From a virus (Duplodnaviria > Heunggongvirae > Uroviricota > Caudoviricetes), in the IMG/VR virus record IMGVR_UViG_2778261447_000015, positions 1 through 12,979 of that record: 12,979 nucleotides of DNA; one strand, written 5' to 3'. The notes under the pieces are model-generated. The model saw nothing but the letters and a program-made list of their open reading frames with translations. It ran no database searches and was not told the DNA's origin. Made by a program: the position numbers and the translations under genes. This document shows, in pieces, positions 1-12,979 of the stretch; positions within the stretch are counted from its first letter, which is position 1, and each line of letters opens with the position of its first letter.

Positions 1-1254
1 ATGCTGGAACAAATGGGCATTGCCGCGAAGCAAGCCTCGTATAAATTAGCGCAACTCTCCAGCCGCGAAAAAAATCGCGTGCTGGAAAAAATCGCCGATG
101 AACTGGAAGCACAAAGCGAAATCATCCTCAACGCTAACGCCCAGGATGTTGCTGACGCGCGAGCCAATGGCCTTAGCGAAGCGATGCTTGACCGTCTGGC
201 ACTGACGCCCGCACGGCTGAAAGGCATTGCCGACGATGTACGTCAGGTGTGCAACCTCGCCGATCCGGTGGGGCAGGTAATCGATGGCGGCGTACTGGAC
301 AGCGGCCTGCGTCTTGAGCGTCGTCGCGTACCGCTGGGGGTTATTGGCGTGATTTATGAAGCGCGCCCGAACGTGACGGTTGATGTCGCTTCGCTGTGCC
401 TGAAAACCGGTAATGCGGTGATCCTGCGCGGTGGCAAAGAAACGTGTCGCACTAACGCTGCAACGGTGGCGGTGATTCAGGACGCCCTGAAATCCTGCGG
501 CTTACCGGCGGGTGCCGTGCAGGCGATTGATAATCCTGACCGTGCGCTGGTCAGTGAAATGCTGCGTATGGATAAATACATCGACATGCTGATCCCGCGT
601 GGTGGCGCTGGTTTGCATAAACTGTGCCGTGAACAGTCGACAATCCCGGTGATCACAGGTGGTATAGGCGTATGCCATATTTACGTTGATGAAAGTGTAG
701 AGATCGCTGAAGCATTAAAAGTGATCGTCAACGCGAAAACTCAGCGTCCGAGCACATGTAATACGGTTGAAACGTTGCTGGTGAATAAAAACATCGCCGA
801 TAGCTTCCTGCCCGCATTAAGCAAACAAATGGCGGAAAGCGGCGTGACATTACACGCAGATGCAGCTGCACTGGCGCAGTTGCAGGCAGGCCCTGCGAAG
901 GTGGTTGCTGTTAAAGCCGAAGAGTATGACGATGAGTTTCTGTCATTAGATTTGAACGTCAAAATCGTCAGCGATCTTGACGATGCCATCGCCCATATTC
1001 GTGAACACGGCACACAACACTCCGATGCGATCCTGACCCGCGATATGCGCAACGCCCAGCGTTTTGTTAACGAAGTGGATTCGTCCGCTGTTTACGTTAA
1101 CGCCTCTACGCGTTTTACCGACGGCGGCCAGTTTGGTCTGGGTGCGGAAGTGGCGGTAAGCACACAAAAACTCCACGCGCGTGGCCCAATGGGGCTGGAA
1201 GCACTGACCACTTACAAGTGGATCGGCATTGGTGATTACACCATTCGTGCGTAA
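1..1254 (+). CDS. proA: gamma-glutamyl phosphate reductase (ProA), complete
   Basis: 417 aa ORF starting at window position 1 with ATG and ending TAA at 1252-1254. The translation matches enterobacterial ProA as I recall it ([16 protein letters not shown]... ending ...GDYTIRA). Confidence 0.95.
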
Positions 1255-1368
1255 ATAAAACCGGGTGATGCAAAAGTAGCCATTTGATTCACAAGGCCAT
1301 TGACGCATCGCCCGGTTAGTTTTAACCTTGTCCACCGTGATTCACGTTCGTGAACATGTCCTTTCAGG

Positions 1369-1444
1369 GCCGATATAGCTCAGTTGGTAGAGCAGCGCAT
1401 TCGTAATGCGAAGGTCGTAGGTTCGACTCCTATTATCGGCACCA
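1369..1444 (+). tRNA. thrW: tRNA-Thr (anticodon CGT), thrW-type
   Basis: 76 nt with acceptor stem GCCGATA/TATCGGC, D-loop AGCTCAGTTGGTAGAGC, anticodon loop TTCGTAA, T-arm GGTTCGACTCC, discriminator A and encoded CCA. A phage integrase gene starts 15 bp downstream. Confidence 0.92.
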
Positions 1445-1458
1445 TTTAAATCAATAAG

Positions 1459-2619
1459 TTACCTCGCATTTAAGTAAACTACGTTCTCCTCTTGTGCCGT
1501 ATTTGTGTCATTGCGACTTATAATCGCATCGATTTTGCTCGCGTGCTCGGTGAGATGCCCGGCTGAAAGGTGGGCGTATCTTTGAACCATTTCGAGAGTT
1601 TCCCATCCTCCCATCTCTTTAAGTGCAAGAAGAGAGACACCGGACTGAACCAGCCAGCTTGCCCAGGTATGCCTCAGGTCATGGAAGCGGAAGTTGCTAA
1701 TGCCTGCTCGCTTTAACGCTCCCTTCCATGCCTTGTTGCTGTCGGTTCTCATCTTCCTTACCGCTGCTGTTTTTGTTCCGTCGCTTCGGTAGGCAGGTTT
1801 GGTGTGGACAAACACCCATCTCTTATGGAGACCCTGCTGTTTTCTTAATATCTGGCATGCGGTTTCGTTAAGAGGAACTCCGATCGCATTGCCAGCTTTT
1901 GTTTCATCAGGGTGCATCCATGCCATTTTCTTATCCAGATCGACCTGTGACCACTCAAGGTCTGTAACGTTGGAACGGCGAAGGCCTGTCGTGATTGCAA
2001 ACATGACCACAGGGAAGAAATGAGGAGCAATTTCTGCAAACAGGCGCTTCGATTCCTCCTCTGTAAGCCATCTGATTCGTCCATTCTTAACGCGTGGTGT
2101 TGATATTTTGGGCGCCCTGTCAAGCCATCCCCATTCAACAGCCATATTGAGAATAGCGCGAAGTATTGCCAGATGCCGCGTCTTCGTTCCTTTGCTTGCC
2201 AGCTTTGGTTTATACTCCGGCACTGGCTTGCCAAGCCGCAAACACCTGTCCCGGCTCATCTCCCAGTTCAGGCGATGGCGGCGGTTTTCCATCCCGTCTA
2301 CCGCCTCCATTATTTTTTCTGTTGTTATGTCAGAGAGAATGGTTTCTCTGAAGTGCAACATCCAGAACGATATAATGCTCTTGTCATCATCAATGGACTT
2401 CTTATCCGATTTCTCACGCAGCCACCGTATGCAGGCTTCCTTGAATAGCTTTTTCGGTGATTCTCCGAGATTTTTTACTCTCCACGCTTCTGCTTTCAGA
2501 CGATCGTGAAGTTCTTGCGCTTGCCTCTTGTCCGATGTTTCAAGAGAGCGTCTAACTCTTGATCCATCTGGCGCGACGAAATCGCAGTGCCACGTGCCAC
2601 CGCGTAGTTTGATTGACAT
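1459..2619 (-). CDS. int: phage tyrosine integrase (P22/lambda Int family)
   Basis: 386 aa with C-terminal catalytic region motifs (…FRFHDLRHTWASWLVQSGV…LKEMGGWETLEMVQRYAHL). ATG at 2619 is preceded by AGGAGG at 7 nt spacing. It sits next to the tRNA and resembles P22 Int by recall. Confidence 0.9.
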   Translation of the reverse strand: MSIKLRGGTWHCDFVAPDGSRVRRSLETSDKRQAQELHDRLKAEAWRVKNLGESPKKLFKEACIRWLREKSDKKSIDDDKSIISFWMLHFRETILSDITTEKIMEAVDGMENRRHRLNWEMSRDRCLRLGKPVPEYKPKLASKGTKTRHLAILRAILNMAVEWGWLDRAPKISTPRVKNGRIRWLTEEESKRLFAEIAPHFFPVVMFAITTGLRRSNVTDLEWSQVDLDKKMAWMHPDETKAGNAIGVPLNETACQILRKQQGLHKRWVFVHTKPAYRSDGTKTAAVRKMRTDSNKAWKGALKRAGISNFRFHDLRHTWASWLVQSGVSLLALKEMGGWETLEMVQRYAHLSAGHLTEHASKIDAIISRNDTNTAQEENVVYLNAR

Positions 2620-2843
2620 GCTTTAACCTCCTGCACATCAACCGCATTCACCGCGCTATTGTGTCTCACAGACTTAAGCGCCGCAATGCAGTCTGACTTG
2701 CAAATGCGATATGGGCTTTTAGGTTTATCTGGATTTATCTTTGCGGCCTGAAGTCGTCCACTTCGTATCCACTGCGTGATAGTTCCTTTGTCTACCTTCA
2801 GATACGACGCTGCTTCTTCACGAGTGAAGATTTCTTCTTCCAC
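2496..2843 (-). CDS. xis: excisionase (Xis), winged-helix DNA-binding
   Basis: 115 aa directly upstream of int and overlapping its 5' end, as in lambdoid xis-int. GTG start at 2843 is preceded by GGAGA at 6 nt. The N-terminus (TREEAASYLKVDKGTITQWIRSGRL) is excisionase-like. Confidence 0.7.
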   Translation of the reverse strand: MEEEIFTREEAASYLKVDKGTITQWIRSGRLQAAKINPDKPKSPYRICKSDCIAALKSVRHNSAVNAVDVQEVKACQSNYAVARGTAISSRQMDQELDALLKHRTRGKRKNFTIV

Positions 2844-2908
2844 CTGGAATCTCCATTTATTGAGTTGGTATTATTGCGGTAGGTCTGGATATCTTGATAA
2901 ATGAAAAT

Positions 2909-2927
2909 GCCTCATCGAGTGTGAGGC
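2909..2927 (-). terminator. candidate intrinsic terminator between the ea cassette and xis
   Basis: On the minus strand the stem is GCCTCA / TGAGGC with a 7 nt loop, followed by ATTTTCATTTAT. It lies immediately 3' of the stop of the 2931..3275 gene. Confidence 0.4.
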
Positions 2928-2930
2928 GGG

Positions 2931-3275
2931 TTAGTCCTTGCGTAGCTCGCTGATTATTCTGTAAGTCTCTGGTGCTTTGTTTCCGTGTATCTTCATTTCA
3001 GACTTCAACAGAGCAACGAGGGAATCCCATTCGTTGAGGATGCCTTTGAATGCCGGAACGCGCTTTGCAACCTTGCCGAATGAATCTCTGATTTCTGGAA
3101 TCTGCTCAACAAGTGCAACGCATCGCCGGAAATCTGCTGCGTCATAGGGTGCGTCGAAGTGATGACCATAGATATTCTTTTTCAGGCCACATGCGATTGA
3201 GGCAAGGGTTGCGCTACTGATGCCGACATCGCCAGTTGATTGCCATTTCAAAACCTTCATAGCCAAATCTGACAT
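2931..3275 (-). CDS. hypothetical phage protein (ea region)
   Basis: 114 aa ORF with ATG at 3275 preceded by GGAGA at 6 nt. No family recognised. Confidence 0.5.
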   Translation of the reverse strand: MSDLAMKVLKWQSTGDVGISSATLASIACGLKKNIYGHHFDAPYDAADFRRCVALVEQIPEIRDSFGKVAKRVPAFKGILNEWDSLVALLKSEMKIHGNKAPETYRIISELRKD

Positions 3276-3347
3276 TTCTTGTCTCCATAAAACAAAACCC
3301 GCCGTAGCGAGTTCAGATAAAAGAAATCCCCGCGAGTGCGAGGATTG

Positions 3348-3632
3348 TTATTCATTGCCGATATTCACCTTTATCGCGAACACCTTTACCGGTTTATCAC
3401 CGAAGTGCGGATGTGTGATTGTCTTGATTTCATATCCGTCATACGGAACATCAATTCTACGGCTGGAATCGTCGCGCTTCGGATATCCCTTTGTGATAAT
3501 CAGGCGGTCATACTCCCGGAACATAATTCGCTTATTCCAGTAGTCATTACACAGGCGATACTCTTCCGTTTTCTCTCCACGAATCATGGCATCGAAGTAT
3601 TCACCTTTGACGGAAAGTTGCAGGTTAGCCAC
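3348..3632 (-). CDS. hypothetical protein, possible ASCH/PUA-like fold
   Basis: Preferred start is GTG at 3632, preceded by AGGAGG at 6 nt, giving 94 aa. The longer ATG-3707 form would overlap the upstream gene by 83 bp. The pattern LQLSVKGEYFDAMIRGEKTEEYR ... VKVFAIKV resembles ASCH domains (recall only). Confidence 0.5.
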   Translation of the reverse strand: MANLQLSVKGEYFDAMIRGEKTEEYRLCNDYWNKRIMFREYDRLIITKGYPKRDDSSRRIDVPYDGYEIKTITHPHFGDKPVKVFAIKVNIGNE

Positions 3633-3843
3633 GGTTAACCTCCTGCGCCGTTTTGATGATTGCTGCCAGACAATTCTTGCAAGGAACAAGCAGCGCTCCC
3701 TGCTCAATGCTCAACAGCGCGTGCTGAGCATCCTGAAACAACCAGTCTGAAAATTGTGGCGCATGTCCGCACCACGTTTCTATTTCATGCTTTGCAAGTT
3801 TAACTCCCTCTCGATAGTCATATTTGATGATGTGCTTGCTCAC
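3625..3843 (-). CDS. hypothetical small protein with a Cys/His cluster
   Basis: 72 aa with GTG start at 3843 preceded by AGGAGG at 7 nt. The start overlaps the stop of the upstream gene in a GTGA arrangement. Contains C-x-H ... C-x-x-C. Confidence 0.5.
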   Translation of the reverse strand: MSKHIIKYDYREGVKLAKHEIETWCGHAPQFSDWLFQDAQHALLSIEQGALLVPCKNCLAAIIKTAQEVNRG

Positions 3844-4031
3844 GACTTCACCTCCTGTTGAGCAGAAACCTGATTTTTGAGTGATTCAGAAATATTCCTG
3901 CAATACCTAGCGGATTCATCGTCGAAAATGCTTTCGAAATACTCAGCAATCCAGCCGAACACAACAACCTGCTCATTGCTTGGATTTGCACTTTGATTGA
4001 AGGCGGTTATTAGTGATGCACTCATACTCAC
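3840..4031 (-). CDS. hypothetical small acidic protein
   Basis: 63 aa with AGGAGG upstream. The start is either GTG at 4031 (GTGA overlap with the upstream stop) or ATG at 4025. Confidence 0.45.
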   Translation of the reverse strand: MSMSASLITAFNQSANPSNEQVVVFGWIAEYFESIFDDESARYCRNISESLKNQVSAQQEVKS

Positions 4032-4822
4032 TTAACCTCCTGTTTTGGTGCTGCTGGAAGCGGCATCCAGTGGGTTATGATTACTTCGCGAGGATTGCAG
4101 TCGTCCTCTACTGGCTGCCACTCCGTCCATCCGTTGGTTTGATAGACAAAGAAATAAGCAGGAATGTAGCCTGGTTCATCTCCTTCAAAATATGTTCCCC
4201 AGCAAAGATACAAGCAATTGCTATCAGGCATTCGCTCACTACAGCTTATCCAACCATCCGGAGTTACCGGATAGTTGCGCATTGCGACCTTTAATGCCTC
4301 ATAGAAGCAACCTTTCAGATTGTTGAACTGACGCCCATTTAGCGGGCCGTGTTCAGTCAGCATGTTGTGTAATTTCCATGCCGCGTCGTTTACTTCGCTG
4401 GATGACAGGGGAGGCAACTTGTAAGTTTGGCTTACAGGTTCGGCACCCTGAAGCATGGCGGCGCGGCAGGCATTCCAGCCTCTCACCTCTGCAATAGCGG
4501 CAACAGCATCAACCGCGTACATGCTAAGAGGATTAGGCATTGGTTTTTCTTCCGGTACTACTGGCGCTGGAGGGGTGGCGTATACTTCAATAATCCCATT
4601 ATCAATAGGCCATTCCCCATCCTTGATGTAGTCACTTGTGCCGTCAACTTGCTGTTCTGCAATGTGGAATGCGCCAATAGGCTCTGCTTCCAGCGATGCC
4701 AACGCGATACGCGCCAGTTCCCTAAGATTTTCGCTATATGGTGAAGTATTATCACGGTTGATTACGTGATTAGCTGTATCTATGAGAACTTGCTTTTGTT
4801 CTTCTCTGGTCATAGTGGTCAT
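4028..4822 (-). CDS. two-domain phage protein with C-terminal DUF551-like domain
   Basis: 264 aa. The C-terminal ~70 aa (…WISCSERMPDSNCLYLCWG…ITHWMPLPAAPK) matches the DUF551 pattern common in lambdoid early-left regions (recall). The N-terminal ~190 aa is unassigned. Confidence 0.7.
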   Translation of the reverse strand: MTTMTREEQKQVLIDTANHVINRDNTSPYSENLRELARIALASLEAEPIGAFHIAEQQVDGTSDYIKDGEWPIDNGIIEVYATPPAPVVPEEKPMPNPLSMYAVDAVAAIAEVRGWNACRAAMLQGAEPVSQTYKLPPLSSSEVNDAAWKLHNMLTEHGPLNGRQFNNLKGCFYEALKVAMRNYPVTPDGWISCSERMPDSNCLYLCWGTYFEGDEPGYIPAYFFVYQTNGWTEWQPVEDDCNPREVIITHWMPLPAAPKQEVK

Positions 4823-4823
4823 A

Positions 4824-5123
4824 TCACATCACCCTGAAGCCGTTGCATTTACGTAAGAAATCGCAGATATAGCCCTTCATTTTTTCATGCCAATCTCGAT
4901 CATTCCCATTGCACCAACCATCAGGTGGAGTCCAGTTTTCTATCAGAGCAGCCATTTTCTTTGCTTTCGCCGGAGTAGCTGTTGCGGTATCGCAGTAATG
5001 ACGAGTGTCAACCAACGCATCCATACCATCGATATCAAGTACGCAAAACCATGTGTGATTCGGCATTCCAACAGATGGTATTTGTTGCCCACGTCGACGT
5101 TTATCAATAAGACATACACTCAC
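4824..5123 (-). CDS. hypothetical Cys-rich phage protein
   Basis: 99 aa with GTG start at 5123 preceded by AAGGAGG at 6 nt. Six cysteines. Confidence 0.5.
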
Positions 5124-5245
5124 TGCTTGCCTCCTTTACGCCACATCGCATTCAGATATTTGTTGTCATTAACAGAACCGAAACTCTTTCTTTTAAGCAA
5201 TTCCTCTCTCGATGGCATTGGCTTTACGCGTTGGCGAATAATCAT
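5120..5245 (-). CDS. possible 41 aa small ORF, translationally coupled to the downstream gene
   Basis: ATG at 5245 to TGA at 5120-5122; the stop overlaps the GTG start of the 4824..5123 gene (GTGA). The RBS is weak, and the ORF is below the ORF-track length cutoff. Confidence 0.2.
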
Positions 5246-5297
5246 TTCTGCCGGAAGAATGCCGGGATTGTATGCAAGTCATCTCATGGTAAATTCC

Positions 5298-5594
5298 TCA
5301 GTCATTACTGATAGCGCCATAGCGTGAGCGGTAATTACGCAGGCGCGGGTCGATATATTCAGGGAAGTGGGTATATGTGGCTTTGCGGAATGGTCGGATT
5401 GATGTCTGGTAAATTCGCTCGTGTTCTTCTTTCTCTGCAAGCCATATACAATGGCGAAATTCCTTTTCCTCTTTCGTTTCCTGCGGTAGCGACATTATCA
5501 GGTCGTAGTTTTTTCTGAATTTATCCAGCACCTCCGATACGGAATTGCCGGAACAGCGGCGCGGGTCATCCGCACCATACAGAGGCGCTGGCAT
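5298..5594 (-). CDS. hypothetical phage protein
   Basis: 98 aa with ATG at 5594 preceded by AGGAGG at 6 nt. It lies immediately downstream of ssb. Confidence 0.5.
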   Translation of the reverse strand: MPAPLYGADDPRRCSGNSVSEVLDKFRKNYDLIMSLPQETKEEKEFRHCIWLAEKEEHERIYQTSIRPFRKATYTHFPEYIDPRLRNYRSRYGAISND

Positions 5595-5607
5595 GATTTC
5601 CTCCTGA

Positions 5608-6123
5608 TTAAATTGCGTGAATAGCGTGACGAGGGAAGGGGAGAGTTACTGGCGCAAATGGTATATCGTCGTCAAACTCCATAGGTGGTTCGCTGTGATT
5701 TCCCTGCTGCTGAGGTTGCTGTCTTTGTTGCTGACCGTTATTTCGCTGAGGTGAAGACTGTTCATTGCCTCCTTGCTTGCCACCAAGCATTTGCATGGTT
5801 CCACCAACGCCCACGATGACTTCGGTAGTGAACCGATCCTGTCCGCTTTGATCCTGCCATTTTCTTGTCCGCAATTTTCCTTCAAGATAAACCTCAGAGC
5901 CTTTTCGCAGATATTCGCTGGCAATTTCTGCCAGTTTCCCGCTCATTACCACGCGGTGCCACTCCGTCTGCTCCTTTTGCTCTCCAGTTTGCTTATCACG
6001 CCATTGTTCTGACGTAGCAACTGTAAGGTTTGCAAATGCCGTTCCTGATGGTGAATATCTGATTTCTGGATCATGCCCAAGGCGACCAATAATGATCACC
6101 TTATTTACGCCTCTGCTTGCCAT
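5608..6123 (-). CDS. ssb: single-stranded DNA-binding protein (SSB) with a 15 aa extension after the DDDIPF motif
   Basis: 171 aa with an OB-fold N-terminus ([18 protein letters not shown]…WHRVV), a Gly/Gln-rich linker and the acidic motif MEFDDDIPF. The ORF continues for 15 more residues ([15 protein letters not shown]) before TAA. Confidence 0.85.
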
Positions 6124-6831
6124 TTATGCCGCCTGTTTTAGCTCGTTAACTCTGATGTTCATTACCTGAACGCATTTAGCCTGCGCCTCCTCGTTTCCAG
6201 CCATTAATTGCCAGTCACGCTGATAACGCTCGATGAGTTTTTTCTTGTCAGTTTCTGTTGACGCATAATCGCTGAAGTCTTTCAGGATTTGTTCGCAGTC
6301 AACCGATGGAGATTTCTGGTTGGTATTTTCTGGTGATGGTTTGTTATCTGATGCTGGGATTGCCCATCCCGGCAGCGATGGAGGGAGCCAGTAAAATCCT
6401 GTTCCATCCTTCAGTTTTGCCCTGTGCCACCCCTGCTTTTTATCGAGAGATGTTTGTGCGAAACCTTCCTCAAGGTTATACAGATACCGACCGATTCCCC
6501 ACTGAACGGCAGCGCGCTTCATTGCACCGGAACGACCACCTTTGACGGCTTCTACCTGCGTGTTTTCAGCAGCATCCCATTTGGTTACCCATTCGGAATC
6601 AATCTTTATTGATATGCCGCATTCAACGCCGCCGTTGTTGGGAATATCGCGGTATTCATTGCGCCATCCTGCTTTGCCGCAAACATCGTCCAGGCGTTTC
6701 ATGATTGCCCGGTTCGTGACATAAGCCAGCACCATAGCCCACACTTTGCCATCGCGTGTTTTACCGCTTTGCTGTATTCGCCATTCGATATCTTCAGGGC
6801 TGAATGGCTCATCGAATTTATTCAAATCCAT
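6124..6831 (-). CDS. Rad52-family single-strand annealing protein (recombinase)
   Basis: 235 aa in the bet/erf position, with its stop adjacent to the ssb start. The core (…GKAGWRNEY…GGVECGISIKID…KRAAVQWGIGRYLYN) resembles Rad52/Sak-type annealases (recall). Confidence 0.7.
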   Translation of the reverse strand: MDLNKFDEPFSPEDIEWRIQQSGKTRDGKVWAMVLAYVTNRAIMKRLDDVCGKAGWRNEYRDIPNNGGVECGISIKIDSEWVTKWDAAENTQVEAVKGGRSGAMKRAAVQWGIGRYLYNLEEGFAQTSLDKKQGWHRAKLKDGTGFYWLPPSLPGWAIPASDNKPSPENTNQKSPSVDCEQILKDFSDYASTETDKKKLIERYQRDWQLMAGNEEAQAKCVQVMNIRVNELKQAA

Positions 6832-6918
6832 AATTCACCTCAGAATGGACACGGCCCAAGGAAATAACGCTGATTTAATACTTCAGTCTTTGCCGCATTT
6901 AAAAATACGCGAACACCT

Positions 6919-7089
6919 TCACGATCTCCCTTCTGGCGATACATTAACGCCTGCTGCGTGTACATGCGTCTCTGTAACTTGCTCTCCTTCACTGTGGTTG
7001 CAAGTGACATGAATATCTCCTTCGTTACCGATTAATTCTTTCATCTGACGAATAAATTCTTCGTCTGACCAGTTATCTGTAAAACTCAT
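6919..7089 (-). CDS. hypothetical small protein in the kil-equivalent position
   Basis: ORF in the track is 6919..7104 with a GTG start. The first ATG, at 7089, gives 56 aa and has only a weak RBS. Function unknown. Confidence 0.3.
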   Translation of the reverse strand: MSFTDNWSDEEFIRQMKELIGNEGDIHVTCNHSEGEQVTETHVHAAGVNVSPEGRS

Positions 7090-7222
7090 TTCCTGCGATA
7101 CCACGGAAGGTTGATAGCTGATTTCATCGCTTTATTTGCTTCAAGCCACATTTTTGAATCACCAATAAATCTGGCTATTACTGCTTTGTTTTGTGCCGCA
7201 CGAAGCATCTGGTGATTGATGG

Positions 7223-7357
7223 CTATTTCATTGCGCATAACGCCTCCAGTTGTTTCTTTGCTGCTCTGATTAATTGTTTAACTCGGCGTGATAATTCAGA
7301 TTCGTGCGGGTAGAAAGCGGACATGACGCCGCTACCCGCGAGCTGAAAGTGCATCAT
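7223..7357 (-). CDS. cIII: CIII-like protein (putative FtsH inhibitor)
   Basis: 44 aa from ATG 7357, preceded by AAGGAG at 6 nt. MHFQLAGSGVMSAFYPHESELSRRVKQLIRAAKK parallels lambda CIII MQYAIAGWPVAGCPSESLLERITRKLRDGWKRL (recall). Position is between the recombination module and N. Confidence 0.5.
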   Translation of the reverse strand: MMHFQLAGSGVMSAFYPHESELSRRVKQLIRAAKKQLEALCAMK

Positions 7358-7432
7358 GGGTAACTCCTTATATTTGATTGCATAACGAAAATGCCTCTGG
7401 TGAAGCATTATTGGTATGCGGTAAAGCCGCGC

Positions 7433-7801
7433 TCAGGCGGCTTTGATAGTCATATCATCTGAATCAAATATTCCTGATGTATCGATATCGGTAATTCTTA
7501 TTCCTTCACTACCATCCATTGGAGGCCATCCTTCCTGACCATTTCCATCATTCCAGTCGAACTCACACACAACACCATATGCATTTAAGTCGCTTGAAAT
7601 TGCTATAAGCAGAGCATGTTGCGCCAGCATGATTAATACAGCATTTAATACAGAGCCGTGTTTATTGAGTCGGTATTCAGAGTCTGACCAGAAATTATTA
7701 ATCTGGTGAAGTTTTTGCTCTGTCATTACGTCATGGTCGATTTCAATTTCTATTGATGCTTTCCAGTCGTAATCAATGATGTATTTTTTGATGTTTGACA
7801 T
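7433..7801 (-). CDS. ea10: Ea10-like protein
   Basis: 122 aa and 369 nt, the same length and relative position as lambda ea10. Sequence identity is from memory and unverified. Confidence 0.5.
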   Translation of the reverse strand: MSNIKKYIIDYDWKASIEIEIDHDVMTEQKLHQINNFWSDSEYRLNKHGSVLNAVLIMLAQHALLIAISSDLNAYGVVCEFDWNDGNGQEGWPPMDGSEGIRITDIDTSGIFDSDDMTIKAA

Positions 7802-7820
7802 CTATTCATATCCTCACAGA

Positions 7821-7847
7821 TAAAAAATCGCCCTCACATTGGAGGGC
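7821..7847 (-). terminator. intrinsic terminator in the PL operon (tL-like)
   Basis: On the minus strand the stem is GCCCTC / GAGGGC with a 6 nt loop, followed by GATTTTTTAT. It lies between the 7943..8143 gene and the ea10-like gene. Confidence 0.6.
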
Positions 7848-7942
7848 AAAGAAGATTTCCAATAATCAGAACAAGTCGGCTCCTGTTTAGTTACGAGCGA
7901 CATTGCTCCGTGTATTCACTCGTTGGAATGAATACACAGTGC

Positions 7943-8143
7943 TTATTCGCGAGCTTTGAGCATTGCGTCTGCAAACTTATATGCAGCGCTTGCTGCATAA
8001 TTAACAGCTCCATCAGAATCATTATCGATAATCGATGGATTACTAATCATTGCTTGCATAGCCTTTGCTGCGAAGTAATCACGTAATGTCGCATCACTTG
8101 CCATTTCTGGGCGTTTGATATCTGCTTCATAAAACTCGCACAT
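7943..8143 (-). CDS. hypothetical small acidic protein (N-proximal cassette)
   Basis: 66 aa from ATG 8143, preceded by GGAGG at 6 nt. The start overlaps the upstream stop (TGATG). Confidence 0.5.
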   Translation of the reverse strand: MCEFYEADIKRPEMASDATLRDYFAAKAMQAMISNPSIIDNDSDGAVNYAASAAYKFADAMLKARE

Positions 8144-8394
8144 CACTCACCTCCAAGAGCTTTGCTGATTGCTGACAGTGCTTTCGATACTTCATCAGGA
8201 TAATGGTCATTCCATTTTTGCTTGTATGCCTTGTTTAGCATCGCTTGCAGAGCTTCGAGCAAATCAGGAGCTGCCTCCATCAATCTCACATCACCTCGAT
8301 GGATGGTTGTATCGTCAAACGTGAAATAAACCCCATCATCGTTAAATCCAGCGCCAACAACATTCCATGGCCTTTTCATTCTTCCTACTGTCAT
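8143..8394 (-). CDS. hypothetical protein (N-proximal cassette)
   Basis: 83 aa with ATG at 8394 preceded by GAGGTG at 4 nt. Confidence 0.5.
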   Translation of the reverse strand: MTVGRMKRPWNVVGAGFNDDGVYFTFDDTTIHRGDVRLMEAAPDLLEALQAMLNKAYKQKWNDHYPDEVSKALSAISKALGGE

Positions 8395-8433
8395 TATTCA
8401 CCTCTGTGTATTTATGCCAAAAAAAAAGGCCGA

Positions 8434-8748
8434 CTATGTGGCTTTATATCTGCGCACTGAAATAATTGGGCAGTGTGTAATTCCAGCAGTCTTTTCCCAT
8501 CTCAACAATGGGATGCGGAATACTTCGAACTCCACCTTCCCGATATGGTCGTTTTGGAAATCCTTTTTCCCCACCAACCAAACCTTTTCAAATCTACGCT
8601 CTATAAGGAAAGCTGATGACCATCCATATTTAGAACCAGCTTTTAACGCTTCCTTTTTTGTCGGAAAGGTTGTAACAATGGAAATTATCTCATCAACTCG
8701 GAGACTTAAAAGATTATTGTCTTTAAAGCTAATTCCGTTCGACGCCAT
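8434..8748 (-). CDS. hypothetical protein immediately downstream of N, AT-rich
   Basis: 104 aa with ATG at 8748, 3 nt after the N stop, with GAGGGA inside the N 3' end. The region looks about 35-47% GC by eye. Confidence 0.45.
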   Translation of the reverse strand: MASNGISFKDNNLLSLRVDEIISIVTTFPTKKEALKAGSKYGWSSAFLIERRFEKVWLVGKKDFQNDHIGKVEFEVFRIPLLRWEKTAGITHCPIISVRRYKAT

Positions 8749-8751
8749 AAT

Positions 8752-9057
8752 TCATCCCTCATACAGTGGTTTGCTGCCTAATTTCATTTTCTGGCGACCA
8801 ACACAAGTCACACCCATTTCACTGCGTGGCTTGCGGTAGTAAATACGGTTCTGTTTACGCTCGACTTCTTCTGCCTTCTTGCAGCGAAGGCTTCCGAGTG
8901 ATGCTGCTTTATCTGCTCTGACGCAACCAGAGAGCTTTAGCTCAATTTTTCGCGCCAGTCGCTGCTCTTGCATTGCCTGTTCACGTTGAGCCTGTCTGCG
9001 TGCTCTGCGGCGATTTCTGGCGTTATCGTCAGCCAGATATGTAATTACTACTGTCAT
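8752..9057 (-). CDS. N: antitermination protein N
   Basis: 101 aa from ATG 9057 preceded by GGAGG at 5 nt. It has an N-terminal Arg-rich motif (DNARNRRRARRQAQ). The C-terminus (RKQNRIYYRKPRSEMGVTCVGRQKMKLGSKPL) parallels lambda N (RKNQRTWYSKPGERGITCSGRQKIKGKSIPL, recall). It is the first gene downstream of PL/nutL. Confidence 0.85.
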   Translation of the reverse strand: MTVVITYLADDNARNRRRARRQAQREQAMQEQRLARKIELKLSGCVRADKAASLGSLRCKKAEEVERKQNRIYYRKPRSEMGVTCVGRQKMKLGSKPLYEG

Positions 9058-9368
9058 GTTGACCTCCGATGAAACAACTTTGGAATTGATAGTGATTGCA
9101 AAGTGGTTTCTGGCCCCTCGAACTGAGGGGCAGAAAGAGCATCTCGCCACCTAATAGGTCGATGCTCGGATCGAGAGATTTAATTAACCTCGGTTTTGAA
9201 GTTATGCATTCACATAAATCCTCCTGTTGCATGTGCAGCATTGGCTGTGTTTGGCAGCTGCATTTCGCCTATGGAATTGACTTTGGCGGTGACGCGCCGG
9301 GTGCTTATCTTCAGGTTGCCGTCGTGCAGCTGCACTTCACGTCACCCCAAAGCCAACTACTCTTTGGT

Positions 9369-9409
9369 TCCCGCATTTCGGCGGGACAATCCCATCAATG
9401 TTAAAGAGC
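9369..9409 (-). promoter_or_regulatory. nutL (boxA GCTCTTTAAC plus boxB hairpin)
   Basis: Minus-strand boxA GCTCTTTAAC (9409..9400) and boxB TCCCGCCGAAATGCGGGA (9386..9369). Both are identical to the elements found downstream of cro, and they lie between PL and N. Confidence 0.7.
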
Positions 9410-9455
9410 CTGCCAATCTGTTCCGTTTGGCTTCCAGCGTCCTGCTGATGGCTAA

Positions 9456-9497
9456 AGAATACTGTAGGTATTTTATTGTGTAAATACCCAAGGTATT
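9456..9497 (-). promoter_or_regulatory. OL operators and PL promoter
   Basis: Two 15 bp sites, AATACTGTAGGTATT (9458..9472) and AATACCCAAGGTATT (9483..9497), 25 bp centre to centre. On the minus strand, -35 TTTACA (9484..9479) and -10 TATTCT (9461..9456) are separated by 17 nt and overlap the operators. Confidence 0.6.
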
Positions 9498-9629
9498 TAT
9501 TTTTGGTGAAATAATGATAAGCAAATGAATACAAAGGATATTTATTTTTTTCGGTGTCTGCTTGTTCAGTGCTTTTTATGCGGGATATGTGAAGTGGATC
9601 CCGATAGCTATTGCTGCCGGGATTATGAG

Positions 9630-9998
9630 TTAGTCAGCGAAGGTTAAGACGAGAATTACCTTAATGATGTCTGCTACAACAGACACGGCCATAGATAAAC
9701 CAAAGACGATCCAAGCCATAGAGATGTCTTCACTACCATCGTATAGAGTTCCGTAATCACTGGTGTAAGGCGTAAATGTCGCGCCTTGATACAATAGGTA
9801 TAAGCTTGATCCATAGAGGATAAATGCAGATATCCCTTGTATTGCCATGATCACCAGAATCATGAAACGAGCTGATCTATGCGCCCAAGCCTGGCTTATT
9901 TTTTCTGATAGAGATTTCGCAATAAAAGCATGCGCTAAGCCGTAAATTGTTGAGATTGCCAACATCCCCAAAAAGCTTGCTATAGCGGTTCCAACCAT
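9630..9998 (-). CDS. small integral membrane protein (three predicted TM helices) downstream of cI
   Basis: 122 aa from ATG 9998 preceded by AAGGGG at 5 nt; the longer ORF form would start with TTG at 10019. Three hydrophobic ~25 aa segments are separated by a basic loop (KSLSEKISQAWAHRSAR) and an acidic Tyr-rich loop. Same strand as cI, 17 nt after its stop. Confidence 0.55.
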   Translation of the reverse strand: MVGTAIASFLGMLAISTIYGLAHAFIAKSLSEKISQAWAHRSARFMILVIMAIQGISAFILYGSSLYLLYQGATFTPYTSDYGTLYDGSEDISMAWIVFGLSMAVSVVADIIKVILVLTFAD

Positions 9999-10015
9999 AA
10001 TCGCCCCTTGCGTGA

Positions 10016-10732
10016 TCAAACCAGCCTTAGTTTTGTCTCAATTGCAACGCCTATAATCTTGCAGTTTCCATTGATTGGCACGAGAGGCCATGCAGGATTA
10101 AGTCCCTTGAGGTATTTATTTCCGCCGTCGATTATCAGCTTCTTGAATGTTGCTTCGTTAGAGTCAGAAAGTTTTGCTATGACCAAGCTGCCGTTGATCG
10201 CCTCCCTTCCGGTATCGAAAAGAACGAATGTTCCCTCTGGAATGCTTAACCCAACCGGTGCCGTCATTGAATCACCTTCCACTTTAAGCCAGAACGCATT
10301 ACCTTGAATATGCGCGTCAGACTCAAGCCAAACATCTATGTCTTTAATGGTGTATGGTTCGCATGCTTCACACCACGAGCCAGCCTGGATACTGCTTAAC
10401 ACCGGATACCTCTTTCCTGCTCTGTATTCCCCTGCATACCTTACGTTGGCATCGCTCTTAAGGCTTTCTGCCTGTTCTGCAACCTTGGCAGCAATTGACT
10501 GGCTAAAATCAGCAATTGAGACTTGCAACAATCGTGCAAAACCAGATGCAACCTCAACGTTTAGCGCGTTTCTGCCATTAAGATAATGCCCTACCGCTCC
10601 TTGGGTGATACCCAGTTCATCAGCGATTGAGTATTGGGTTATTCCCAATTCTTTCTTTTTTGACTCATACAAAGCCTTAAGCCGCTTAGCGTCTTCGAGC
10701 TGTTCTGTCGTCAGTGATTTTTTATTTTCCAT
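10016..10732 (-). CDS. cI: CI repressor (HTH N-terminal domain, S24 LexA-like C-terminal domain)
   Basis: 238 aa with lambda-CI-like architecture (…LTTEQLEDAKRLKALYESKKKELGITQ…, C-terminal …FWLKVEGDSMTAP… and …FKKLI…). No Shine-Dalgarno precedes the ATG, consistent with a leaderless PRM transcript. Divergent from cro. Confidence 0.9.
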   Translation of the reverse strand: MENKKSLTTEQLEDAKRLKALYESKKKELGITQYSIADELGITQGAVGHYLNGRNALNVEVASGFARLLQVSIADFSQSIAAKVAEQAESLKSDANVRYAGEYRAGKRYPVLSSIQAGSWCEACEPYTIKDIDVWLESDAHIQGNAFWLKVEGDSMTAPVGLSIPEGTFVLFDTGREAINGSLVIAKLSDSNEATFKKLIIDGGNKYLKGLNPAWPLVPINGNCKIIGVAIETKLRLV

Positions 10733-10738
10733 AGCTTA

Positions 10739-10809
10739 ATTCTAATAGCTAAGGTACTTAAACTAAAAATACCCTGAGTATTGATTGCTTTGAATACCTG
10801 TAGTATTCT
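10739..10809. promoter_or_regulatory. OR operators with divergent PRM and PR
   Basis: Sites AATACCCTGAGTATT (10768..10782) and AATACCTGTAGTATT (10793..10807), plus a degenerate site AATAGCTAAGGTACT (10744..10758). PR candidate is -35 TTGATT (10781..10786) and -10 TATTCT (10804..10809) with 17 nt spacing. PRM -10 candidate is TAGAAT on the minus strand (10744..10739), 6 nt before the cI ATG. Confidence 0.65.
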
Positions 10810-10838
10810 TTGTTCATGGTTAATAACGGAGAGTGCAT

Positions 10839-11033
10839 ATGATTCGAATGACACTTGCCGATTACGCCAAAATCCATGGACAGGCTAAAGCAGCCAGTGA
10901 CTTTGGTGTAATCCAGTGCGCTATCAGCAAGGCCATTCTGGCAGGCCGTAACATCATGGTTACGGTAAAGCCTGATGGCAGTGTGATTGGAGAGGAAGTT
11001 CGTCCTTTCCCAAGCAACAAGAAAAACAAATAG
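10839..11033 (+). CDS. cro: Cro repressor
   Basis: 64 aa from ATG 10839 (the ORF track starts at GTG 10833). [33 protein letters not shown]…PFPSNKK parallels lambda Cro (recall). First gene of the PR operon. Confidence 0.85.
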
Positions 11034-11039
11034 TAACAC

Positions 11040-11095
11040 CGCTCTTTAACAGTCATGGTCCTCATTCCCGCCGAAATGCGGGAATACAACGCGCA
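11040..11095 (+). promoter_or_regulatory. nutR (boxA CGCTCTTTAAC plus boxB hairpin)
   Basis: boxA at 11040..11050 and boxB stem-loop ATTCCCGC-CGAAAT-GCGGGAAT at 11074..11095. It shares a 10-mer and an 18-mer with nutL, and lies between cro and cII. Confidence 0.7.
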
Positions 11096-11141
11096 TAAGT
11101 TGATGCGCATAACTTCTTATTTGTTAAGGAAATACTTACAT

Positions 11142-11435
11142 ATGGTTCGTGCAAACAAACGCAACGAGGCTCTACGAATCGAGAGTGCGTTGCTTAACAA
11201 AATCGCAATGCTTGGAACTGAGAAGACAGCGGAAGCTGTGGGAGTTGATAAGTCGCAGATCAGCAGGTGGAAGAGGGACTGGATTCCAAAGTTCTCAATG
11301 CTGCTTGCTGTTCTTGAATGGGGCGTCGTTGACGACGATATGGCTCGATTGGCACGACAAGTTGCTTCGATTCTCACCAATAAAAAACGCCCGGCGGCAA
11401 CCGAGCGTTCTGAACAAATCCAAATGGAATTTTAA
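11142..11435 (+). CDS. cII: CII transcriptional activator
   Basis: 97 aa from ATG 11142. The protein and the upstream RBS context (TAAGGAAATACTTACATATG) match lambda cII as I recall it, with about one substitution. The ORF-track form starting at 11055 is an in-frame upstream extension. Confidence 0.95.
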   Translation: MVRANKRNEALRIESALLNKIAMLGTEKTAEAVGVDKSQISRWKRDWIPKFSMLLAVLEWGVVDDDMARLARQVASILTNKKRPAATERSEQIQMEF

Positions 11436-11457
11436 TAACATCCAACGAGGTAATTAT

Positions 11458-11730
11458 ATGCGAAACAAAGGCTTTAATCCACCTGATACACACAAAGAAG
11501 CTAAGCGTTTGCGCTTCCTTCGTTCCATTGATGAAAGAACTCAAATCTCTTTTGTGAAAGTTGCCAGAACTGAGCTTCTGAAGGCTGAGGCGAGGGCGTT
11601 GCTCCCGTCCCTACCAAAAGAGGAGGGATATACGTTCATTCCAAACGCATTTCTGGAAAAGCTGCTCAAAGAAGACATATCCGTAAGTCAGTTTAACGAT
11701 GTTCTTAAGGTCTTTCGTCAAGGCAGGTAG
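11458..11730 (+). CDS. hypothetical protein between cII and the replication initiator
   Basis: 90 aa from ATG 11458 preceded by GAGG at 7 nt; the stop is 2 nt before the next ATG. Lambda has no gene at this position. The longer ORF-track form overlaps cII out of frame. Confidence 0.5.
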   Translation: MRNKGFNPPDTHKEAKRLRFLRSIDERTQISFVKVARTELLKAEARALLPSLPKEEGYTFIPNAFLEKLLKEDISVSQFNDVLKVFRQGR

Positions 11731-11732
11731 TT

Positions 11733-12680
11733 ATGAGCAATACAGCAAAAATCTACGATTTCAGCGCCGCACACGAGCGCAGGAGCAACAGGATGGAGAA
11801 CCAGAAAACTGGTTACATTCCGTTGTACCGGAGCATTCTGAAACAGTCATGGGCGAAAGATGTTTATCTTCGCACCCTGTGGGAAAACCTTCTCCTGAAT
11901 GCCGCCAGAAAGCCATACAAAGCGAATTTCAAAGGTCATGAATGGCATCTGCAACCCGGTCAACTGGTTGTGACAGCAGCTGATTTAGGTCTTCAGTTAT
12001 GCGACAGGCATGGCAAGCCGGCAAGCCGTGATCAGGTTGAGCGGATGCTTCAGGTTTTTGTGAAAGAGGGGATGATCTCCATTGACGGAGAGAAGCAAAA
12101 AGGTCGTGTGATCACCATCACAAATTACCATGAATATGCTCAAAAAATGGACAATTTACCCGCACATGAAGCCGCACAAACAAACGCACATGATGCCGCA
12201 CATGACGAAGCCAGTAATGGCGCGGCTTTCAGCGTACGTGCCGCACATGAAAGCGCACATGAAGCCGCACAAACAACCGCACATCATGAACAAGAAGGTA
12301 TTAACAAGAATATAAATAATACCCCCCTACCCCCCAATGGGGGAGGCGATGGGCAGGTTAAACCTGAACGTCGCAAGGCAGAACGAATCGACTACGAATC
12401 CTTCCTGAACGCCTACAACACCGAAGTCGGTGACAGACTGCCACATGCTGTTGCGGTCAACGAGAAACGCAAACGTCGCCTGAAGAAAATCATCCCGCAA
12501 CTGAAAACGCCAAACGTGGACGGTTTCAGAGCGTATGTCAGGGCGTTTGTGCATCAGGCCAAGCCGTTTTACTTCGGAGACAACGACACGGGCTGGACGG
12601 CAGATTTTGATTACCTGCTGAGGGAAGATTCGTTAACGGGAGTTCGGGAAGGGAAGTTTGCAGACAGGGGGATTGCATGA
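11733..12680 (+). CDS. replication initiator protein (O-like) with internal origin
   Basis: 315 aa in the O position. The central region encodes AHE/AHD repeats from DNA iterons, followed by an AT-rich segment. Its stop overlaps the helicase start (ATGA). Confidence 0.7.
12159..12326. repeat. candidate replication origin: CGCACATGA-type iterons plus AT-rich tract
   Basis: About six copies of (C)CGCACATGA and two copies of GCCGCACAAACAA between 12159 and 12292, then AT-rich AGGTATTAACAAGAATATAAATAATAC, all inside the initiator gene. This is the lambda ori-in-O arrangement. Confidence 0.6.
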
Positions 12681-12979
12681 GACAGGATATCGAAGCGAGC
12701 GTTATCGGTGGTCTGCTGATTGGTGGATTAACTCCAACCGCCAGTGACGTTCTGGCAACGCTTGAGCCGGAAGCGTTTTCAATTCCGCTCTACAGGAAAG
12801 CTTTCGAAGTTATCCGTAAGCAGGCGAGAAACAGAAACCTAATCGATGCGCTGATGGTTGCCGAGGCGTGCGGAGAGGAGCATTTCACGTCAATCCTGAT
12901 GACCAGCAAAAACTGCCCGAGTGCCGCAAACCTGAAGGGATATGCCGGAATGAACCGCCCCGGGAATCCTGGAGACTAA
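12677..12979 (+). pseudogene. DnaB-family replicative helicase, N-terminal 100 codons only, apparently cut by an IS insertion
   Basis: DnaB N-terminal domain motifs ([10 protein letters not shown]…, …[10 protein letters not shown]) are followed by a non-DnaB tail ([10 protein letters not shown]) and TAA at the last window base. The tail is encoded by sequence resembling an IS3-family terminal repeat. Confidence 0.55.
12951..12979. mobile_element. probable terminal inverted repeat of an IS3-family element (IS629-like), partial at window edge
   Basis: TGAACCGCCCCGGGAATCCTGGAGACTAA matches my recollection of the IS629/IS1203 left end. It begins exactly where the helicase reading frame diverges from DnaB. 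The element body is outside the window. Confidence 0.5.

Follow-up and report, generated by a model that had tools for sequence, protein, structure and literature searches.

Three genes between N and a terminator

The DNA stretch analysed here, hereafter the window, is 12,979 nucleotides long (IMG/VR record IMGVR_UViG_2778261447_000015, positions 1 to 12,979) and carries a lambdoid, P22-like prophage that sits at tRNA-Thr(CGT) adjoining proA. This work concerns the interval that separates the antiterminator gene N from an intrinsic terminator, in which three small open reading frames (ORFs) follow N on the minus strand, and are named ORF1, ORF2 and ORF3 in that order (Table 1). A preliminary description had presented them as a three-gene cassette lying where lambda has ral and sieB. 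The geometry of the region was found to be as described: the stop codon of N (TGA, 8752-8754) is followed by the trinucleotide att and then by the ATG of ORF1 (8748), the stop of ORF2 and the start of ORF3 overlap as TGATG (8145-8141), and the deduced proteins are 104, 83 and 66 amino acids (aa) long, or 67 aa for ORF3 if translation starts at a GTG one codon upstream.

The three ORFs are genuine protein-coding genes, because they belong to conserved families (see below), each is preceded by a canonical Shine-Dalgarno sequence (GAGGGA, AGAGGTGA and GGAGGTGA), the ratio of non-synonymous to synonymous substitution rates (dN/dS) against diverged homologues was 0.10 for ORF1 and 0.13-0.36 for ORF2, as under purifying selection, and the structure models of ORF1 and ORF2 are confident (predicted local distance difference test, pLDDT, of 88 and 81 respectively). 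Their products are small, soluble, non-enzymatic-looking proteins. No transmembrane segment was detected: in all three proteins the 19-residue windows stay at or below 1.6 in hydrophobicity. ORF1 has an isoelectric point (pI) of 9.8 and a net charge of +6.7, ORF2 a pI of 5.6 and a net charge of −2.3, and ORF3 a pI of 4.56 and a net charge of −4.5, with 11 D+E residues (17%) against 7 K+R.

A plus-strand ORF antisense to the first gene (8414-8839, 141 aa) had been raised as a possible alternative to it. This ORF is interrupted by a stop in the 80%-identical loci L004-L006, is missing in L007, has no Shine-Dalgarno sequence and shows no similarity to SieB; its third codon positions, deduced from the coordinates, fall on those of ORF1. 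It is not conserved and is not a gene. Homology to structural or housekeeping phage proteins, the other outcome that could have overturned the preliminary description, was not found for any of the three ORFs. A second overlapping frame of 43 aa (7891-8022, minus strand) is read across the 3′ end of ORF3, in a different frame, and on through the hairpin described below. Wherever the block is conserved (Sf101, L002, L003, L014 and L063) this frame is present too, for which DNA conservation is the simplest explanation.

The segment had also been described as AT-richer than its surroundings. The difference is real but modest: its GC content is 41.7%, compared to a mean of 46.0% for 806-bp windows across the prophage, which places it at the 8th percentile. 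GC at third codon positions is 0.30-0.42 in the three ORFs versus ∼0.39-0.55 (mostly at least 0.44) in other prophage genes, and the AT-rich zone extends over the downstream gene, a homologue of lambda ea10.

The intrinsic terminator expected downstream of the ORFs is strong, with an 8-bp G+C-rich stem located ∼94 nt past the ORF3 stop. It is of the tL2a rather than the tL1 type, because it aligns with tL2A of HK620 (L009, 601-628) and with the terminator annotated for the ral-ea10 interval of phage 21 (L010, 621-650). A 14-bp hairpin devoid of a U-tract stands directly past the ORF3 stop, and the block covering both elements (7808/7820-7942) is 94-98% identical in Sf101, HK140, HK620, phage 21 and CUS-3. 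The 131-nt tail past ORF3 (7815-7945, minus strand) is unusually structured (−46.7 kcal/mol, z −5.3), and this tail block, from about its position 9, recurs across 331 phage records; it could be a processing or stability element. No RNA family of Rfam was matched in the cassette or the terminator region.

Modular exchange in the ral/sieB position

Placing the three ORFs in the ral/sieB position was borne out by phage 21, which has the order N-ral-terminator-ea10 and flanks 95-97% identical to those of the window. On the upstream side the conserved flank is N itself, whose DNA is 98-99% identical to N of HK620 and HK140 (the Pfam N_peptide match is weak), while the ea10 homologue, the first gene past the terminator, is the downstream anchor that fixes the identity of the slot. 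The gene content between these flanks differs from one relative to the next: N-sieB-ral in HK140 and N-hkaQ-hkaP-tL2A in HK620 (sieB and hkaP being on the opposite strand), N-ral-ORF2-ORF3-terminator in Sf101, N-ral-gp47 in CUS-3 and N-phrog_1636-Y8K6-phrog_2201 in Dewey. The flanks of the phage 21, HK140, HK620 and Sf101 slots are 94-99% identical to those of the window. At least 8 unrelated PHROG families occupy the slot in relatives, and, ral and sieB aside, its occupants are PHROGs of unknown function. The slot flanks were detected in 331 phage records and in 2269 of the 5426 complete E. coli genomes; ORF1 is present in 12 of these 5426 genomes, and the ORF2-ORF3 block (at least 80% coverage) in 9.

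The three genes do not form a single cassette, and on this point the preliminary description has to be corrected: they belong to two independently exchanged modules, ORF1 on the one hand and ORF2-ORF3 on the other. Pairwise DNA comparisons placed the homology breakpoints at 7942/7943, 8431-8434 and 8745, all of them gene borders, and the conserved terminator block stops at 7942, the base next to the ORF3 stop codon. Sf101 shares positions 7808-8431 (terminator block, ORF3, ORF2 and linker) at 98% identity, has ral and a 28-aa ORF in place of ORF1, and becomes similar again at 8745, the N stop. Conversely, L064 and L065 share the ORF1 block only (8411/8416-8777).

The same picture emerged from a co-occurrence table of 45 loci in lambdoid context, built with local hidden Markov models. 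All three ORFs are together in the window, L002, L003, L005 and L063. ORF1 occurs without the two others in L064, L066, L069 and L070, with ORF2 only in L004, L006 and L065, and with ORF3 only in L071. As for the second module, ORF2 and ORF3 are adjacent in 15 loci, ORF2 is found without ORF3 in 13, and ORF3 without ORF2 in 8. In addition, ral accompanies ORF2, with or without ORF3, in L001, L015, L019, L074 and L079. ORF2 and ORF3 are not substitutes of ral, because they co-occur with it (Sf101 and the last four of these loci). ORF1 and ral were never observed together (0 of the 13 loci with ORF1, compared to 8 of the 32 loci without it; one-sided Fisher test, p = 0.049), a mutual exclusivity that is only suggestive, since the p value is borderline and the loci are a non-random, non-independent sample.

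Does the overlap between ORF2 and ORF3 make them an obligate two-component system, for instance a toxin-antitoxin pair or a heterodimeric regulator? An overlap of 4 nt points to translational coupling, the adjacency recurs in the 15 lambdoid loci just mentioned, and the ORF2 model contains a helical hairpin, while a helical ORF3 is an expectation from its sequence alone. However, ORF2-family genes from non-lambdoid contexts share an identical 4-nt overlap with many unrelated downstream genes, among them those of DksA/TraR-type zinc fingers and DUF551-like proteins; TGATG is therefore typical packing and no evidence of an obligate pair. Each gene is also found without the other, ORF3-family genes lacking ORF2 in most of 80 IMG/VR loci, no toxin-antitoxin or defence match was obtained in PADLOC, Pfam or NCBIfam, and no promoter signal above chance was detected. 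An obligate pair is thus very improbable.

The two modules are separated by a short linker that holds the ORF2 ribosome-binding site and a run of nine T. It belongs to a ∼50-bp boundary sequence (8395-8447) which is ∼90% conserved in Dewey and L073 despite other flanking genes. This sequence behaves like the annotated 'boundary sequences' of CUS-3, and may serve as a joint at which modules are exchanged by recombination. The T9 hairpin was considered as a tL1-like terminator between ORF1 and ORF2, and rejected, as its folding is not stronger than that of shuffles (z 0.09).

Variable content between conserved flanks, breaks at gene borders and an orientation following pL are the properties of mosaic accessory genes. 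We conclude, with a probability of about 60%, that the segment is a hypervariable accessory slot of the pL operon, extending from N to the tL2a-type terminator and filled with two mosaic modules of early, non-essential host-interaction genes. Judging from position, a host-interaction or counter-defence role would be the most likely one for ORF1-3.

Transcription and prophage context

ORF1-3 are co-directional with pL and lie downstream of an intact nutL. The pL/nutL region is 100% identical to the annotated one of HK620, and its operator repeats (9458-9549) are found again at OR (10767-10811). Minus-strand terminator-like sites between 7300 and 9700 were limited to 7849-7828 and 7409-7390, and the terminator scan revealed no intrinsic terminator between pL and 7849. 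Promoter-like matches in the region numbered 4, compared to 5.1 expected by chance. One such site at 8420-8393 (10 of 12 matches) was discarded, as its −10 box overlaps the ORF2 start codon and the count for the region is below chance. ORF1-3 would thus share with N an N-independent pL transcript that ends at 7828-7849 and is made as soon as infection or induction begins, and they would be silent in the lysogen, where pL is repressed.

A second element resembling boxA and boxB, GCTCTTTCT followed by GCCCCTCAGTTCGAGGGGC, was noticed in the N leader (9112-9142, minus strand). It is located inside a segment of ∼200 nt (9073-9275) that is present in HK140 and missing in HK620. The functional nutL, with a boxB identical to that of nutR, is further upstream (9368-9409).

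The other features of the window are collected in Table 1. Judging from E. coli gene order, the tRNA-Thr(CGT) gene beside proA is probably thrW, the site used by phage P22. On the plus strand, the window contains cro, cII, an O-like gene (11733-12680) and a partial ORF at its end (12677-12979). The exact prophage was found in none of the complete E. coli genomes of the collection, the best coverage being 64%. The small membrane protein encoded 18 nt downstream of the cI-like repressor gene, in the place of rexAB in lambda, has 28 hydrophobic windows above threshold.

Table 1. Features of the window, in order of position
Feature	Position	Strand	Remarks
proA	1-1254		start of window
tRNA-Thr(CGT)	1369-1444	+	prophage integration site
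int	1459-2619	−	
ssb	5608-6123	−	
Rad52/Erf-type annealing protein	6124-6831	−	
kil	7086-7238	−	
cIII	7223-7357	−	
lambda ea10 homologue (DUF2528)	7433-7801	−	Pfam DUF2528, E 1e-47; matches phage 21 ea10
intrinsic terminator	7822-7849	−	GCCCTC-caatgt-GAGGGC + U-run; terminator scan; −12.9 kcal/mol, z −3.7
14-bp hairpin, no U-tract	7900-7942	−	directly past ORF3 stop; −21.9 kcal/mol, z −6.3
ORF3	7943-8143	−	66 aa; second gene of module 2
ORF2	8143-8394	−	83 aa; first gene of module 2
intergenic linker	8395-8433	−	between modules; T9 run and ORF2 ribosome-binding site
ORF1	8434-8748	−	104 aa; mosaic module 1; first gene after N
N, antiterminator	8752-9057	−	101 aa from ATG with GGAGG Shine-Dalgarno; phrog_271 'anti-termination protein N-like', E 4e-39
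nutL	boxA ∼9400-9409, boxB 9368-9386	−	both arms repeated at nutR 11041-11084
pL candidate	−35 9484-9479, −10 9461-9456	−	TTTACA-17-TATTCT; promoter scan; OL repeats overlap
small membrane protein	9630-9998	−	∼122 aa; beside repressor; phrog_6534, E 2e-78
cI-like repressor	10016-10732	−	

Protein families, possible functions and known systems

ORF1 is assigned to phrog_16670 (E 8.8e-40, residues 4-103), a small family: 6 clusters represent it in a set of 5.8 billion proteins, and a set of 1.84 billion contains 57 representatives at 50% identity. Besides the 12 complete E. coli genomes mentioned above, it was found in 3 of 185,579 species-representative genomes and in 1 of 50,697 phage records. 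The exact protein is present on 199 contigs, and a variant from Salmonella Anatum on at least 1000, so that within E. coli and Salmonella isolates ORF1 is not vanishingly rare. The range of the family is mainly enterobacterial (E. coli, Salmonella, Enterobacter, Klebsiella), and its signature reads F-x-T-K-K-x-A ... G-W ... R-R-F-E-x-V-W-x-V-G ... D-F-Q ... P-L-L-x-W-E. The predicted structure consists of three short helices followed by a seven-strand sheet, for which structure comparison returned no fold match. In prophages of the Enterobacter/Klebsiella type (L066-L068 and L076), the leftward operon opens with the ORF1 homologue, which stands behind a long leader and has no detected N gene upstream; an association with N-type antitermination is therefore not a fixed property of the family. 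A 2474-aa protein (P0297) with six weak matches to the ORF1 motif was set aside, being repetitive, with no single stretch in its Pfam matches passing the threshold.

The ORF1 family was compared by hhalign with the other first-position occupants of the slot (hkaQ, phrog_1636, gp47 of CUS-3 and phrog_1372), and no similarity was found but a short FPTKKxA motif. This motif relates residues 24-56 of ORF1 to gene 44 of Dewey (phrog_1636, L011:1258-1728), with an E value of 0.009 and a probability of 4.6%. A phrog_1636 protein is encoded directly downstream of ORF1 in L064. The likeness is probably due to chance, but a common N-terminal element could also lie behind it.

ORF2 belongs to Pfam PF27050 (Phage_P22_Y8K6, named 'XkdD/Y8K6 family phage-associated protein' by NCBI). 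The assignment was made through homologues, as PF27050 is precomputed on all 120 matches listed, some of them 94-99% identical to ORF2; the family is also assigned to called genes of L004-L006 and L074, and NCBI names one homologue 'XkdD/Y8K6 family'. The predicted structure combines a beta-hairpin and a helical hairpin bearing the conserved AAPDLLEAL and AISKALG motifs, and its structural matches are generic (Z at most 5.6). The L-x-x-AAPDLLEAL helix and the C-terminal AISKALG helix are shared with the rest of the family, and nothing sets ORF2 apart within it.

ORF3 is a member of phrog_2201 (GGPAFP ... TLRDYFAA ... ADAMLKAR; E 1.5e-18 over residues 10-66), with 1488 database matches that have invariant motifs. 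Its 48-residue core, TLRDYFAAKAM ... AYxxADAMLKARE, was found in at least 493 confirmed IMG/VR stretches, always at the C-terminus, in proteins of 42-114 aa. ORF3 has this core with all conserved residues. Most members of the family start with GGPAFP, which ORF3 lacks; it has a MCEFYEADIKRPEMASDA leader instead, common at the DNA level to other enterobacterial variants. A match to a PHROG labelled 'transcriptional regulator' (phrog_30599) is weak (E 4e-7).

How could such genes be used by the phage? Under our interpretation of the segment as an accessory slot, the ORF1 module and the translationally overlapping ORF2-ORF3 pair would have been acquired independently, and their products would be dispensable host-interaction factors, each binding a host or phage macromolecule. 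Dispensable target-binding factors fit the early timing and small size, the lack of any catalytic or membrane feature, and a presence/absence pattern that varies extremely. ORF1 would then be the best candidate for counter-defence of the Ral type, while ORF2 and ORF3 would have another early accessory role, which may be a more general one because the two families are found across many phage types.

Several observations weigh against this interpretation. Position alone does not predict function, because the slot also hosts genes of other roles, such as sieB, and many unknowns. The borderline exclusivity of ORF1 and ral has been discussed above. As Rho-dependent termination between N and ORF3 is possible, the immediate-early timing is deduced rather than observed. 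The three ORFs gave no match with known function in our local Pfam-A copy, NCBIfam, PADLOC or PDB sequences and profiles, and their families are annotated as hypothetical in every public source. None of their peptide motifs is present in the supplements of the accessory-gene screen of Silas et al. (PMC12373910). The scan of Pfam at E values up to 1 likewise yielded no match for any of the three, the PF27050 model not being in the Pfam copy used, and PDB profile searches with the family alignments gave nothing significant. A literature search returned nothing on Y8K6, XkdD or the peptide motifs of the ORFs.

The alternative that survives best is that ORF1-3 modulate phage development in the manner of cIII or kil, acting on the lysis-lysogeny choice, transcription, replication or recombination, and not on host defences. 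They share an operon with cIII, kil, ea10 and erf/ssb, ORF3 has its weak phrog_30599 match, and the presence of the ORF2 and ORF3 families in non-lambdoid and virulent-type phages also suggests a general phage function. However, neither Pfam, structure nor PDB profile searches detected a DNA-binding fold or motif, and the extreme presence/absence variation among close relatives speaks against a core role. We consider this alternative unlikely.

A narrower proposal, and in our view a rather more doubtful one, is that ORF1, and possibly ORF3, is an anti-restriction protein, an analogue of Ral alleviating type I (EcoKI-like) restriction. ORF1 starts 3 nt past N, exactly at the place of ral, its expression would be as early as possible, and it was never found with ral. 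Against this stand the lack of any sequence or profile similarity to Ral, the absence of a fold match and of matches to the anti-defence and defence models of PADLOC, and the fact that unrelated genes (hkaQ, phrog_1636 and phrog_1372) also fill the first position. ORF3 moreover co-occurs with ral. The preliminary description had drawn an argument from the last protein being small and acidic, as anti-restriction proteins often are. ORF3 is indeed small and mildly acidic, but the argument fails, because its net charge is only −4.5 and because Ral is basic (pI 8.5). Of the three ORFs, ORF1 alone remains a candidate for an anti-restriction role, as a possibility.

Exclusion of superinfecting phages or prophage defence, as exerted by SieB, is the least probable function of ORF1-3: SieB-type genes do fill the slot in HK140 and HK620, but they are on the opposite strand and encode membrane proteins, PADLOC matches none of the three ORFs, the antisense ORF is neither conserved nor SieB-like, and such a role is unlikely for our genes because they have no transmembrane segment, have no promoter above chance and run with the lysogen-repressed pL. 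For an exclusion or defence function expressed in the lysogen, the membrane protein beside the cI-like repressor makes a better candidate than the N-proximal ORFs.

Coming back to the accessory slot, the interval between N and tL2 is the first to be transcribed upon lambdoid infection or induction, and its characterised occupants are only ral, for anti-restriction, and sieB, for exclusion. Whole genes are swapped in it at precise borders, and at least 8 unrelated families of unknown function rotate through it, so that its occupants make up a short list of proteins that may take part in early host interaction or counter-defence. The most attractive of them is ORF1, owing to its narrow distribution, its confident structure model, its orphan predicted fold, its location in the position of ral and its apparent exclusivity with ral. 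One may tentatively speculate, although we hold it to be improbable, that ORF1 is an unrecognised counter-defence protein with a new fold, which takes the place of Ral directly after N and neutralises, through binding, restriction or another host defence that acts early, and that the slot is an anti-defence hotspot (phrog_16670, 1636, 1372, 7374, 3054 and 5305). On present evidence the region is a case of ordinary, well-delimited lambdoid mosaicism, of which ORF1 is the only intriguing part, and should none of the three genes have a phenotype, the finding would be that of a well-documented example of such mosaicism.

Among known systems, the DNA mimics Ocr (of phage T7) and ArdA resemble ORF3 in small size, early expression and net negative charge. 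Ocr and ArdA have a net charge of roughly −25 to −30. ORF3 is far less charged and shows no sequence or PADLOC match to them, and the very high density of acidic surface residues that characterises a DNA mimic is displayed by none of ORF1, ORF2 and ORF3.

SieB and HkaP are encoded, like ORF1-3, between N and a tL2a-type terminator. They are larger (193 aa for SieB of HK140, 164 aa for HkaP) and are transcribed from the opposite strand, whereas ORF1-3 follow pL and have no similarity to them; SieB is a membrane protein with 18 hydrophobic windows, compared to 0 in ORF1-3. That none of the three proteins resembles Ral or SieB, as had been noted by eye, was upheld by hhalign, by Pfam and by the comparison with SieB; against Ral of Sf101, hhalign gave probabilities of 0.2% for the ORF1 profile and 0.1% for the ORF3 profile.

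Ral (PF11058) of lambda, phage 21 and Sf101 differs from ORF1 in its length (66 aa instead of 104) and in its Cys-rich N-terminus (3 Cys, compared to 1 Cys in ORF1). Both are small soluble early proteins. ORF1 is encoded in the same operon, in the same orientation and in the same slot between N and a tL2a-type terminator, within flanks up to 98% identical, and its start 3 nt past N is the place taken in Sf101, phage 21 and CUS-3 by ral or by the short leader ORF of ral.

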